DNA from: Bugula neritina
Lineage: Eukaryota; Animalia; Bryozoa
DNA: 64,000 nt
Direction of reading: 5' to 3'
Assembly (NCBI GenBank): GCA_964035545.1
Contig: OZ037766.1
Coordinates: forward strand, 12,948,722 to 13,012,721
Below are positions 54,501 through 59,432 of this stretch, in pieces. A model generated the notes under the pieces. The model saw only the letters and a list, made by a program, of their open reading frames with translations. It did not search any database and had not been told where the DNA came from. Numbering within the stretch: position 1 is the first letter of the stretch; the number at the start of each line of letters is the position of its first letter. Made by a program: the position numbers and the translations under genes.

Positions 54501-57500
54501 TTACTGCACTACCCGAAAGGAACTGCTGGCAGTAATCAAGTCGGTGAAGCATTTCAGACCTTATCTATACGGCAGGAAGTTCCGCTTGCGGACCGACCAC
54601 GCCTCCTTGATTTGGTTATGCAAGAGAGCAGAACCGTCCAGCCAAGTCGCCCGATGGCTCGAAGTCCTGGCCGAATTCTCTTACCGGATCGAGCATCGGC
54701 CCGGTAAGAAACACGGCAATGCTGATGGACTGAGCCGGCGACCGGACGAGGGGTGCAAACAGTGCCTCAACATCGAGAAGAGGGATGGAGGTCCCCCAAA
54801 ATCCGAGTTGAGGGCATTGAACCACCCTGAAACGGAGTATGACTGGGACCAGGGTCAACTCCTACAGAAGGCCACTACGCCCCCGGAGGCTATCCAACGT
54901 CTCCGTGCCAATCCTGTCTTGGCTGATAACGTCAGGGAGCTACGAAGACTCCAAGAGGACCTCCCCGGAGTAGTAGCCGACGTATATCGAGCCAAAAAGG
55001 AGGGGCGACGACCCAGTGAAGAACAGCTGCGGCAGGGATGCACCGAGTTACGGTTGTACTGCCAACGTTGGGACTCCCTGCGGATCGGGCCAGATGGTCT
55101 GCTGACCATCACAGTAGCCGCCTACAACAGCCAGTACGGAAGAAAGCGGGTGATCTGCCCAGCCGCCATACGCCGGGAGTTAGTATGGGACACCCACAAA
55201 CAGGCCCACGCCGGGGTAAGCAGGGTGCTCTCCAAGTTACAGCTCCGGTGGTACTGGCCCGGCATGGAGCGTGAGGTACGGCGTAGAGTCAAACAATGCG
55301 AAATCTGCCAGGCCAGCAAGCATGGCCGTCTCCCTGGCGAAGCGGGACGGCGTAGGCTATATGCTGGGAGGCCATGGCAGGTGGTAGCTGTCGACCTAGT
55401 CGGACCCATGCCCGTCACCCCCAGAGGAAACAGTTGGATACTAGTATTAACCGACCACTTTACACGGTGGGCGGACGCCCTGGCTATTCCAAATGCGTCC
55501 GCCCCGACGGTGGCCAGGGTGCTAGACCAAAATGTATTCTGCTACCTCGGACTACCCGAGCAGATACATTCGGATCAGGGGGCTCAATTCCAGTCTCAAC
55601 TGTTGAGCGACCTCTGCCGCCTCTGGGGAGTAAACCAAAGCAGGACCACCCCGTACCATCCTCAGGGCAACGGGGTGGTGGAACGCAACAACCGCATGTT
55701 GGGCGATGCACTGCGCAGTCTGCTCCTCGGCCGGGGTCAGGAGGAATGGGATACGGTACTACCGCAGGTCATGCGGGCCTACCGTAGTACACCACACACC
55801 AGTACGAAGGAAACCCCTAACCTCCTGATGCTCGGTCGAGAGACGCGAGTGCCTGACCACCTCACATACCACATCCCAGAGCAAGACTATACTATCCACG
55901 AGTATGCCAGTAAATTGATAGAGGACCTGAGGGCCGCACACGAAATACTGCGAGCAAAGCAGTGGCAGGTACGGCAGGAGGACTCTCAGGAACCACCCCT
56001 CTATCAAACTGGGGACTGGGTGTGGATGATCAACTACCGTAGGCGTCGAGGACAAGCGGCTAAGCTCCAGCCTAAGTTTGTGGGACCCTACGTAGTAGTT
56101 GAGGCGATGCCCAATCATACGTACAAGTTGGAGCGATCTGGACAGGTCTCTGTCCAGAATGAAGCCCGCTTGAAACCGTATTGGGCTAGCCCAGGAGCAG
56201 CAGGAGCAGCCCCCCCCCCCCCCCGTTGTTGGAGCCCAGGAGGCAGACAGCAACGCGCGGGCGGCAACGGCATGGACCAGAATACGAAGTGGTTGTGCCG
56301 CGGGAGGAGGACTTGGTGAAGCAGGAAACGCCACTCCCACCAACGGAAGTGCGCCCACCGCCCCCAGTACCAAGTCTACCCCCACCACTTCCGGATCCGC
56401 GTCCGGAAGTGCAAAACCCCCCCGTGGGAGGGGCTCCATCCGGAGACAACAGCGGAGAGGGAAATGCCATCATCAACGACGGGCCAGAAACACCACAAGT
56501 GGAGCAAAATAGCCCACCAGTGAGTACACCACCCCAACCAACAACTACAACCCCCTCTCCAGCTAATACGTCACCTCCCCTGGAACGAGGACAGCGTACT
56601 AGACAACCCCCAGCATACCTGAAAGACTTCGTATGTGACCGTGTTGCAAACGGCAGTTACGAAAGTCCAGCTGGGCGCCGTACGGAAGGACTGGCAACAA
56701 AGCGTGGGAGTTGTGAACACCACGGAAATCTCAACTTTTGCGAAGGCGGAGTAGTAAACAAAACTACTACGCCCGGGGCAAATAGTTCCAGCCGTGCGCA
56801 ACAACCACGCTGCCCAGTCTTTTCCTACGCTGACGTTGTCAAGGGCAGACGCATTCAAACTCAATCCACGGACATCCAAGCTTGAACGCTGAGTATGATT
56901 ACAAATACCGGGTTCTCAGGTAAGCTTGCTCTGAACTAACATTTCCACTCATGGAAACAAGTCTACCATCAGTCAGTTCTGATTTAATCGCCCTGATTGA
57001 ATCACAACTACTGGGGACTGAGTCCTACGTGAAAGGCGACGAGAACATAACGATGGCCGACGATCTACTAGATCTGGAGCTTGACACTATGTCTCTCTGT
57101 CAGTCTACACGACACGACTCAGTCCCTCGAGTGCCATCTAAAAAGATGTATGACTCCCAGACTAGTAACAGTCGGTTGTCATCAGAATTATGGTGTAAAG
57201 ATCACACTCGATCTAACAATAATTCTGCTCTTTTAGATACCGCTCTCTCTCCTCTTCCTTGTGACATGCCGTCATTGGAAATGGCTTGGAACGAGGAACC
57301 CGTTCCCACTACACTTCCGGAAGCACTCTTACACCAGTCATGCTGGGTTACCCCAGACACAGAAGCACTTATTCGAGAACACAAGGGCGATGACCAATGC
57401 ACCACCTGCCGTTTATGCCAGCTTCATTTCACCACCCCACGAAGACTTCGAGTTCACGTTCCCCAACATTATTTCACCACCTTTTGTCCCTGTGGTGAAT

Positions 57501-59432
57501 ATAGTTACCACAGGGACTACATCCTCCGTCACCAGCGGACTATGGGATGCCATGTTGGACATCTTTTCGAAGTCGACGAACCCTCCTTCCCACAATTCCT
57601 TGATCTCATCCGACCATTTATATCAGACCCGACTCACTATGAACGGCTGCGTCAGGAGTTCCCCGCACCCAGGACCATCACACAAGGACCCTGCCCTAAA
57701 CCACCCGGATATAGGAGACCACACGCACCCCGTCCATCACCCCCCGCACGCACAGTGCCCCGCCCCGACTCCATACCTAGAGTCGTGCTACGACGCATCG
57801 AAGTACCACAGCGATGGCGTCCCTCTCCCCCCGTCTCCCCAAGGCCTTCTCGTAAACGGCGTTGGCCATCTTCGTCTCCCAACCGGCACTCTGCCCCCGC
57901 CCGGAACCTAGGAGAAGCAGAAGAGCGGATACGAGAACTAGAGGAGGAAGTGCAAAGGCTGACACCGAGAATCTCTGCCGCCGCATCTGAACTCCGGGCC
58001 CTCTCTGCCTCTGTAGCCCGAATGAAAGGAAGCGCTTGAAGACGACATCCCCAAACTCCCTACCCGTGATGGTATCGCAGGTGGTGCCCCATCTCGAACC
58101 CCTCTCATGCCCGGTGCTAACGAACAATTCCTCAGTGTGACAATCTTATAGTAACCTACAAGTATGCATCTCTAACTCTATGGACTATTCACTTACAAGT
58201 GCCTCTCCCGTCAGTGTCATAGTGTGTTTTTACTGTTATATATTTTTTTTATATTTTTTTATTATTGTACATAGTCATATTCTTTCTTTTATGTGCCATA
58301 CGCTCTCTCAATTTTTAAGCTTTTTTTTTTAACGTTTTGTGTCTTAGTGTTAACTGTATCTGTGTTATCAGAAAGTAGGGCTTTCTGCTGGGGGGGGCGG
58401 TGTAGTGAGTACGTAATACGCGCGTCCCCCAAGCCCCTTTAGCCAATAAGAGTGCGTCATGTGATAACCCCCAGCGATGTAGAAAGTAGTAGTAGAGAGA
58501 GCGTACTAAACGAGTAAAGATGTAGTGTTTCTAATCTGTGTACTTTTTGTATCTTTCAACCTACTTAGTAGTAAATAAACCTCGTTGAATCTTATTTAGA
58601 CAATTTATTGATGTGGATAAATAGACTATAATTACAAGCTAGGAACATACGTGCAGTAATTGCACAAATTACTACACTATTAGTATTACTAATAGTAATA
58701 CTTATTATAATACTAATACTTTGACTTTACATATTGAGATACTGATGTTCATAGTCATACTGATAGTTATGCTCATACGGTTATAACTTATAGATAATCA
58801 TAATAGCATCAGTAGAACTAGAAGTAGGTATAAGTATAACTGTAACAAACCAATATCAATATGTGAAATGCTACAATGGAGACAGAGTAATGACCAATGA
58901 GTATTCAAAATTCATATAACTGAAAGTGAAATAACTACAAGATTAACTTTGAGTGTATAACTAATAGTAATAGTAATACTACTACTTATACTTATAAGTT
59001 ATAGTTTATTAGTTTACTTAACTTATATTTATACTTATACTTATAGTTATACTAATCTAATACTTATACTAGTGTATTCACAGTATTGCATTTGCCACAT
59101 TAAAAATAAACATTTATGTTTTTATTTTATTTTTGACATCTTGATATTCATCTTCAATTATTATTATATTCTGATATTCATATTGATAATCATAATGTCT
59201 AATTTAAATTATGATATTCCAAATTCAAATTGTAAACGGTAAATGAGTAAATGTAATGGCTTATACTCACAGTTAGACTTAGTGTAATACTTATAGTTAT
59301 TGCGTGCATTAAAATTATTGGTCAATTCAAACATTATCACTATACAATAATTAGATCAATCCATAAAAACATTAGTACTAAATTTAACAGATAATAGCTT
59401 TGAATATATAGAACTAACCTTGCTAACGCCAT
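48540..59432 (-). CDS. SDHC: Succinate dehydrogenase cytochrome b560 subunit, mitochondrial, ~179 aa
   Basis: Exons 59432-59419 (MALAR), 50329-50246, 50127-50017, 49688-49627, 49510-49347, 48644-48540 (540 nt). Motifs RPISPHLTIWKWQLPMNTSLMHRITG and YHAINGARHLGWDTGKGF. Confidence 0.93.
51109..51385 (+). repeat. 5' LTR (277 bp)
   Basis: TGTAGT...ACTACA terminal inverted repeat. Contains CCAAT and AATAAA. Six substitutions and one indel versus the 3' LTR. Confidence 0.97.
51387..51405 (+). other. Primer binding site complementary to the tRNA-Leu 3' end
   Basis: TGGTGGCAGCGGTGGGATT, 1 nt after the LTR. It is the complement of ...AATCCCACCGCTGCCACCA, the 3' end of metazoan tRNA-Leu(AAG/TAG). Confidence 0.85.
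51448..52661 (+). pseudogene. gag: gag with CCHC zinc knuckle, frameshifted at a G9 run (51660-51668)
   Basis: APVFTGLEDVEQFIQEF..W in one frame continues as VDGIIATLRARFG in another. CWECGIKGHRRSSC knuckle present. Confidence 0.9.
52590..56885 (+). pseudogene. pol: pol (protease, RT, RNase H, integrase, Pro-rich tail) with frameshifts at ~53887 and at the C15 run 56210-56224
   Basis: FLLDSG protease. WRFCVDYRKLN and YLDD RT. LDTDAS...ELLAV...TDH RNase H. HKQAH..CEIC, VDL..SDQG..VER and GPY integrase. PFGLTSAP|ATFQR is broken by a 1-nt loss. The start is approximate. Confidence 0.93.
56951..58039 (+). CDS. Retrotransposon ORF3: 362-aa C2H2 zinc-finger / Pro-Arg-rich / coiled-coil protein (not env)
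   Basis: Intact ORF between pol and the 3' LTR. CRLC-x3-F-x5-L-x2-H-x3-H finger, second CPC-x12-H-x5-CH finger, PSRKRR, and C-terminal heptads LGEAEERIRELEEEVQRL. No signal peptide or TM segment visible. Confidence 0.85.
   Translation: METSLPSVSSDLIALIESQLLGTESYVKGDENITMADDLLDLELDTMSLCQSTRHDSVPRVPSKKMYDSQTSNSRLSSELWCKDHTRSNNNSALLDTALSPLPCDMPSLEMAWNEEPVPTTLPEALLHQSCWVTPDTEALIREHKGDDQCTTCRLCQLHFTTPRRLRVHVPQHYFTTFCPCGEYSYHRDYILRHQRTMGCHVGHLFEVDEPSFPQFLDLIRPFISDPTHYERLRQEFPAPRTITQGPCPKPPGYRRPHAPRPSPPARTVPRPDSIPRVVLRRIEVPQRWRPSPPVSPRPSRKRRWPSSSPNRHSAPARNLGEAEERIRELEEEVQRLTPRISAAASELRALSASVARMKGSA
58401..58676 (+). repeat. 3' LTR (276 bp) preceded by a polypurine tract
   Basis: GGGGGGGGCGG immediately upstream. 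Direct repeat of 51109-51385. Confidence 0.97.

Follow-up and report, generated by a model that had tools for sequence, protein, structure and literature searches.

A two-finger zinc module encoded 3′ of pol in a bryozoan Ty3/Gypsy element and fused to Pol in many of its relatives

Accessory domains decide the insertion sites of long terminal repeat (LTR) elements and their escape from control, and to our knowledge few are known in animal elements (chromodomain, PHD, MBD, and CERV). Complex retroviruses encode the transactivators Tax and Tas, with nuclear features, in an accessory open reading frame (ORF) 3′ of pol. Chromoviruses carry a chromodomain at the C-terminus of integrase (PMC3605345), and CopiaMBD carries an MBD in Pol (PMC6673714); each is a chromatin- or DNA-reading domain in the integrase ORF, inherited with pol and proposed or shown to steer insertion. 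Lineage-specific, non-env ORFs 3′ of pol are described for LTR elements of bdelloid rotifers (PMC5408684) and plants (PMC7264820), and the CERV protein of C. elegans Cer1 is a nuclear Cys-finger protein encoded in the same slot (PMC10309623). Here we analyze a stretch of 64,000 nucleotides from Bugula neritina (contig OZ037766.1, positions 12,948,722 to 13,012,721; hereafter, the window), in which a 7.57-kb Ty3/Gypsy element carries a third ORF (ORF3) that lies past pol and ahead of the 3′ LTR. The original prediction read ORF3 as a separate nuclear regulator, on the premise that basic Ty3/Gypsy elements encode only gag-pol and sometimes env; non-env ORF3s are already a known class (PMC5408684, PMC10309623, PMC7264820).

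ORF3 is element-borne and conserved, is apparently not env, and is not a one-off host capture. Its parts, in window coordinates, are the following.

56951..58039 (+), ORF3, intact and stop-free, 362 aa, from ATG at 56951 to TGA at 58039
56951..57130 (+), acidic/Leu-rich N-terminus (residues 1-60), for the most part predicted to be disordered, with one helix at residues 11-21
57332..57685 (+), conserved core (residues 128-245): N-terminal helix, two fingers, a strand, and two helices
57407-57469 (+), finger 1, C2H2, C153-x2-C156-x12-H169-x3-H173
57485-57550 (+), finger 2, C179-x-C181-x12-H194-x5-C200
57686..57901 (+), Pro/Arg linker, with PSRKRR, resembling a nuclear localization signal (NLS), at 57845-57862 (residues 299-304)
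57908..58033 (+), C-terminal helix of 42 residues (residues 320-361), predicted coiled coil

The stop-free ORF with its acidic/Leu N-terminus, C2H2 and atypical fingers, PSRKRR, and coil is as originally predicted. Residues 1-60 contain 12 Asp/Glu and 3 Lys/Arg, and residues 246-317 contain 21 Pro and 17 Lys/Arg; judging from its sequence, PSRKRR may act as an NLS. No signal peptide or transmembrane (TM) helix is indicated (highest 19-residue hydropathy 0.93), which agrees with the earlier view that ORF3 is not env. With respect to errantivirus env, ORF3 matches no Pfam env family and its core has no BFVD match at E ≤ 0.001. ORF3 and 89 aligned members fall into no Pfam family, so that a characterized accessory ORF family was not encountered among Pfam families, and Rfam gives no match. 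The extra ORFs of bdelloid rotifers and plants differ in that they encode GDSL esterases, DEDDy nucleases, and TM or coiled-coil proteins (PMC5408684, PMC7264820), and the word "zinc" is absent from both texts; neither a GDSL nor a DEDDy Pfam domain occurs in ORF3 or the 89 aligned members.

The core follows integrase in frame (after IN-SH3; IN, integrase) in 31 of the best 120 long Pol relatives, which were chosen by pol similarity alone, and does not do so in the window's element. Therefore, what these relatives carry as a C-terminal module of Pol stands alone in the window as ORF3. The fused proteins have a core of ~115 aa with two fingers, and the linkers that join it to the integrase/SH3 region are open and 204-723 aa long. 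One relative (P0227) has reverse transcriptase (RT), RNase H (RH), integrase, SH3, and the core in one chain, and its cluster includes 5 separate 2373-aa members among the 15 members listed; another (P0305) has gag, pol, and core in one single ORF. A coil-like end follows the core in 25/31 fused proteins, compared with 6/31 control linker starts, by an ad hoc score. Pfam scans of the window ORFs and the fused relatives detect neither a chromodomain nor an MBD. The fused relatives resemble chromoviruses and CopiaMBD in placing a putative DNA- or chromatin-reading domain in the integrase ORF, but differ from them in having a two-finger zinc module and a terminal coil 200-700 aa past SH3 and in that the module also exists as a separate ORF; a targeting role would be assigned here by analogy.

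The module appears to have travelled with pol. Core and pol identities co-vary (Mantel rho 0.58, reached in 0/2000 permutations, for 30 fused rows plus the window, leaving out P0307 as a near-copy of P0302), which fits long co-inheritance and does not by itself prove a single gain. A tree built from RT-RH-IN compares the window with 93 relatives and excludes 27 rows with NCBI names, many of which are concatenated gene models; in it, all 31 fused rows lie with the window in one 83-row clade, and none of the 11 rows outside it is fused. Pol trees place the window's pol among fused families. Its sister, P0250 (70%), has a 314-aa tail with no core, and the next neighbors are fused (support 94/93, unstarred). 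In two relatives at middle distance (P0151 and P0200), sequence like the pol tail runs into the ORF3 N-terminus in one frame. A quick tree of 93 core domains is weakly resolved. By eye, the Pols of P0253, P0265, P0277, and P0280 end in a coil-like helix with no finger core, as they might if the core had been lost and the coil kept. A Pol sub-clade (P0329 and P0332, with P0335 and P0344 by precomputed domains) has a dUTPase between RNase H and integrase.

Differences between sister copies, taken from one public sequencing run and confined to the best-supported rows, several of them from one contig, are mostly silent. Of the 40 listed among 104 differences over 56860-58060, 39 lie within ORF3, and 29 of these 39 are silent, compared with 31% expected (p 4e-8; rough omega 0.16). 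For the differences present in two or more contigs the count is 17/24, and when the 39 are read in the two other frames, 10 and 6 are silent. Small pol controls give 6/10 and 4/8. Because the differences are mostly silent, and in the ORF3 frame only, ORF3 is under purifying selection, so far as these sequences can tell, and the decay in sister copies that would have spoken against the original prediction is not seen. One alternative holds that ORF3 is a severed relic of the Pol tail, decaying and disused. It would account for the junction between pol and ORF3, with its stops and frame offset relative to relatives, and for the low number of full-length proteins among the close homologs (11 of 76). 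The excess of silent differences largely refutes it, however, and short metagenome contigs together with dead copies account for the truncated homologs, so that we give this alternative hardly any credence. The intactness of ORF3 in this copy, to which the original prediction gave weight, is uninformative because at the lesion rate of gag-pol a 1089-nt ORF would stay open with P about 0.45.

Our preferred interpretation, which is tentative, is that ORF3 is a DNA- or chromatin-binding module associated with integrase, like a chromodomain or MBD, and acts in trans in this element. The fingers would bind DNA and the coiled coil would multimerize or hold a partner, and the module would thereby serve integrase by binding DNA or chromatin, guiding or anchoring new insertions. 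Fused forms would be made with Pol and packaged, so that the module would reach the pre-integration complex; in the subfamily of the window, ORF3 would have a Met start of its own, with a subgenomic RNA as the probable template, and would act in trans. Since dozens of divergent families keep the module in frame after integrase, the simplest view is that it belongs to the integration machinery, as do chromodomains and the MBD of CopiaMBD. Among the roles listed in the original prediction, the presence of the module as the C-terminal part of Pol in these relatives favors integration targeting over LTR transactivation.

Several observations weigh against this interpretation. In the subfamily of the window, the module is not covalently linked to Pol: the window's Pol tail stops at 56885, 65 nt upstream of the ORF3 ATG and in a different frame, and two stops and a frame offset relative to relatives lie at the junction. 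One sister contig of high depth runs through this junction ungapped. Because of the two stops, the offset, and the gapless contig, the split is a trait of the subfamily. ORF3 is not reached from the pol tail by simple read-through of the stop, since the frames differ and a second stop follows. An upstream extension is missing in all 35 close homologs that reach the ORF3 N-terminus. The pol tree shows frequent switches between the fused and the non-fused state (20 changes, 17 of them forced), and a 29-row subset has 8 changes, no fewer than shuffles; this lability implies that tethering to integrase is not obligatory. The non-fused rows may be a mixture of truncated or broken copies, losses, and possibly separate ORF3s that are invisible in protein data. 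Two families (P0185/P0217 and P0192) have protease in frame with the module and no RT, RNase H, or integrase, and may be non-autonomous derivatives. Genes annotated as host genes in bryozoans also carry the module with no integrase, and both groups fit a job independent of integrase. Finally, most rows of the family alignment have a hydrophobic residue at position 6 of finger 1 (V/I in 164/225), which is unusual for a base-reading zinc finger.

Some of these points would suit the separate nuclear regulator of the original prediction. ORF3 could be an element-encoded transcription regulator, an LTR transactivator or anti-silencer, which is possible but somewhat improbable. Its fingers might then sit on LTR or internal DNA, its acidic N-terminus might activate or counter silencing, and its coil might dimerize, an arrangement that we likewise regard as possible and somewhat doubtful; no better placed is the corollary that the elements could tolerate the Pol fusion as a by-product, from which protease would release the protein or which a subgenomic RNA would bypass. 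The order of its parts (acidic region, fingers, a basic motif resembling an NLS, and coil) fits such a regulator, residues 1-60 and the core are equally conserved in the subfamily (68% mean identity each, in 11 full-length homologs), and close homologs have the start Met in common, which relatives with extended N-termini retain at an internal position. The labile fusion state, the split in this subfamily, and the cores that occur with no integrase also support a free regulator. The long open linkers in the 31 fused families count against a free regulator, because a free regulator needs none. Moreover, an acidic/Leu patch exceeds composition shuffles in only 2/31 fused proteins, so that a conserved acidic activation patch in the fused forms was rejected, and no LTR 5-mer is prominent after multiple testing (best p 0.0055). 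Compared with Tax and Tas, ORF3 matches nothing in Pfam or BFVD by sequence or structure, its element is no retrovirus, and transactivation would be hypothetical. The element-borne, conserved nature of the proposed regulator stands, but it is not simply a transcription factor-like gene in the env slot, given the 31/120 fused Pols.

Finger 1 has the classical spacing C-x2-C-x3-F-x5-L-x2-H-x3-H with conserved ligands. The profile of the ORF3 family matches C2H2 proteins of the PDB (best E 5e-7); ORF3 alone matches no Pfam finger. Finger 2 departs from classical tandem C2H2 fingers in its CxC knuckle and in lacking four fixed ligands: the original prediction gave its pattern as CxC..H..CH, but the fourth ligand varies within the family, C200 being present in 146/218 rows. 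The remaining seven zinc ligands are near-invariant (208-219 of 218-225 rows), and finger-helix Arg residues are conserved (R165 in 158/221, R188 in 176/218), all counts being from a family alignment rich in close relatives. The core is predicted with high confidence (pLDDT 94.9, pTM 0.85, from 89 sequences). In the full-length model, the flanks are disordered around one finger core of 115 aa, and a helix spans residues 320-361. Foldseek with the core as query found no similar structure at E ≤ 0.001 in either PDB or BFVD, and a wide search stayed below Z 5, which does not establish a new fold. The best structures of the wide search are DNA-bound tandem C2H2 pairs over residues 143-199, and the likeness is weak, the top match being Kaiso (Z 3.4, rmsd 2.8, 57 residues). 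Like Kaiso/ZBTB33, SALL4, and ZBTB20, ORF3 has a canonical finger 1, and the predicted pair overlays their DNA-bound pairs (rmsd 2.4-2.9 over ~50-57 residues); it differs in the CxC knuckle, the variable fourth ligand, and the flanking conserved helices. Structural comparison thus gives a confidently folding core, with only a weak likeness to tandem C2H2 fingers, and a model-based match of this kind demonstrates no function. In ESM Atlas, the best matches are clusters with no names (core 0.94-0.95; full ORF3 <0.9).

Some C2H2 fingers bind RNA, and it is conceivable, though unlikely, that ORF3 is a nuclear protein similar to CERV or Rev that acts on unspliced element RNA and licenses its export or packaging. 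Two strong predicted donor-like splice sites in the element (51479 and 56920) imply that unspliced RNA may need help in leaving the nucleus, and CERV is a precedent for the export of genomic RNA by a nuclear Cys-finger protein encoded in this slot (PMC10309623). The domains of CERV (H, M, and G-protein-like, with a C4 finger) are nevertheless unlike the ORF3 core; the H/M/G layout has no counterpart in the ORF3 model, as judged from the published description with no alignment to CERV. CERV also differs in being spliced to gag exons and in having no homologs outside nematodes, and the available part of the paper mentions no fusion to integrase (PMC10309623). The structural neighbors of the ORF3 core are DNA-bound finger pairs, and a nuclear export factor would gain little by fusion to integrase.

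The only named true ORF3 homologs are bryozoan proteins from Bugula neritina (KAF6040923.1 and KAF6040922.1) and Watersipora subatra (XP_067940963/4 and XP_067944745), with one or two cores per protein. The two Bugula genes have adjacent locus tags, and by eye the Bugula pair and XP_067944745 apparently have a further N-terminal motif in common. In a 46-row core tree, the host-annotated sequences fall at three places among Pol-fused sequences. Topology tests reject the host sequences as one clade (p-AU 0.012) and do not reject a single Pol-fused clade (0.093). On this sequence evidence, bryozoan core genes may have been domesticated repeatedly, unless they are mis-annotated element copies; repeated domestication is only a lead, because the branches are long and the tree has no root. 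Recurrent host-annotated genes would also suit the co-option of a restriction factor, and the coil of the split form might let it titrate its partners, whether fused or host proteins. That ORF3 limits its own family or disturbs host defense through protein contact, as copy-number control or a decoy finger, is nonetheless quite improbable: direct evidence for it is lacking, and the conserved Arg residues of the finger helices suggest contact with nucleic acid.

The ORF3 module is real, selected, and apparently undescribed: no description was found in the literature, although Repbase, Dfam, GyDB, and supplements, which lay outside that search, may already contain member families. A broader picture, which we consider rather improbable as a whole, is that of a large undescribed Ty3/Gypsy lineage of marine invertebrates with its own sequence-specific DNA-binding protein, which alternates between integrase-fused and free trans-acting forms, serves as a targeting adaptor and possibly as an LTR regulator, and has been domesticated several times in bryozoans as a new zinc-finger gene family. 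The module is a new, confidently folding zinc module across dozens of families. Its fused, split, coil-only, and host-gene forms in nature lend themselves to comparison, both on whether an integrase helper needs tethering and on the way in which domains of transposons turn into host zinc-finger genes.

A protein search found 76 close ORF3 relatives with 50-91% identity, and a full scan gave 177 clusters at E ≤ 0.001. The ~115-aa core is kept down to 20% overall identity, with a Trp-led helix, the C2H2 finger, CxC-x12-H, a VD strand, and helices. Scanning for the motif yielded 36 loci, 1 viral and 35 from metagenomes, of which one is a true homolog (L026, CAJIBL010000229.1). In this locus, the module (35% identity) stands directly before a polypurine tract (PPT) and an LTR, followed by a primer-binding site (PBS) with the same 18 nt as in the window's element, gag, and protease. 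The locus (1-4530, −) has a single ~720-bp LTR in the order module, PPT, LTR, PBS, gag, and protease; the arrangement may reflect an assembly that collapsed into a circular form, a circle with one LTR, or elements in tandem. Two other motif-scan loci (L008, E 0.003; L015, 33 aa) were dropped as chance. The close-family alignment had 56 pattern matches among metagenome contigs, none confirmed, and ORF3 or pol as query found nothing in viral contigs. P0150, a fish ubiquitin-hydrolase repeat protein, and three Wiz matches were dropped as unrelated or finger-only.

The element around ORF3 has the structure of Ty3/Gypsy (Metaviridae) elements, with paired TG...CA LTRs, target-site duplication, PBS, and PPT, and a Pfam scan of the window ORFs gives the domain order PR-RT-RH-IN (PR, protease), together with SH3.

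51105..51108 (+), 5′ target-site duplication CTAT, within an AT-rich simple-repeat array
51109..51385 (+), 5′ LTR, 277 bp, TGTAGT...ACTACA, paired with the 3′ LTR
51387..51404 (+), PBS, an 18-mer that also follows the LTR of the distant element L026
51448..52500 (+), gag with CCHC knuckle, broken near 51660, continuing into the pol N-terminal region
52500..56217 (+), pol, frame changes near 52500, 53885, and 56217
~52622-52900 (+), pol protease (Pfam)
~53624-54102 (+), pol RT (Pfam)
~54292-54678 (+), pol RNase H (Pfam)
~55159-55662 (+), pol integrase, H2C2 and core (Pfam)
~56011-56133 (+), pol SH3 (Pfam)
56220..56885 (+), Pol post-integrase tail, Pro-rich, matching P0250 (E 1e-14) and P0254 (E 1e-10)
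58390..58400 (+), PPT, upstream of the 3′ LTR
58401..58676 (+), 3′ LTR, 276 bp, paired with the 5′ LTR
58677..58680 (+), 3′ target-site duplication CTAT

The two LTRs align with 270 matches, 6 mismatches, and 1 gap (97% alike). The PBS is one that we take to be for tRNA-Leu. The zf-CCHC match of gag (Pfam, E 0.024) is below the cut-off. Relative to intact relatives, gag-pol has four frame changes (about 51660, 52500, 53885, and 56217), one more than originally counted; two of them are at G or C runs and so could be assembly errors, and sister contigs have indel differences at or near three of the four places.

The insertion site is an AT-rich, near-palindromic simple-repeat array with a 12/18-bp period (51027-51108 and 58677-58721), and similar arrays occur elsewhere in the window (near 23655-24080, 31309-31505, and 36897-36969). 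From this one insertion site, such arrays may be a preferred target. A motif common to the LTR and the target repeat was not significant and is missing from the L026 LTR.

Two further features of the window lie away from the element. A very long Thr/Ser/Glu-rich repeat ORF of at least 1774 aa (1-5322, −), open at the window edge, is mucin-like. Exon-like ORFs of a host gene (32482-33249, 34680-35075, and 35482-36033, +) contain a Cys cluster, presumably MYND-like.

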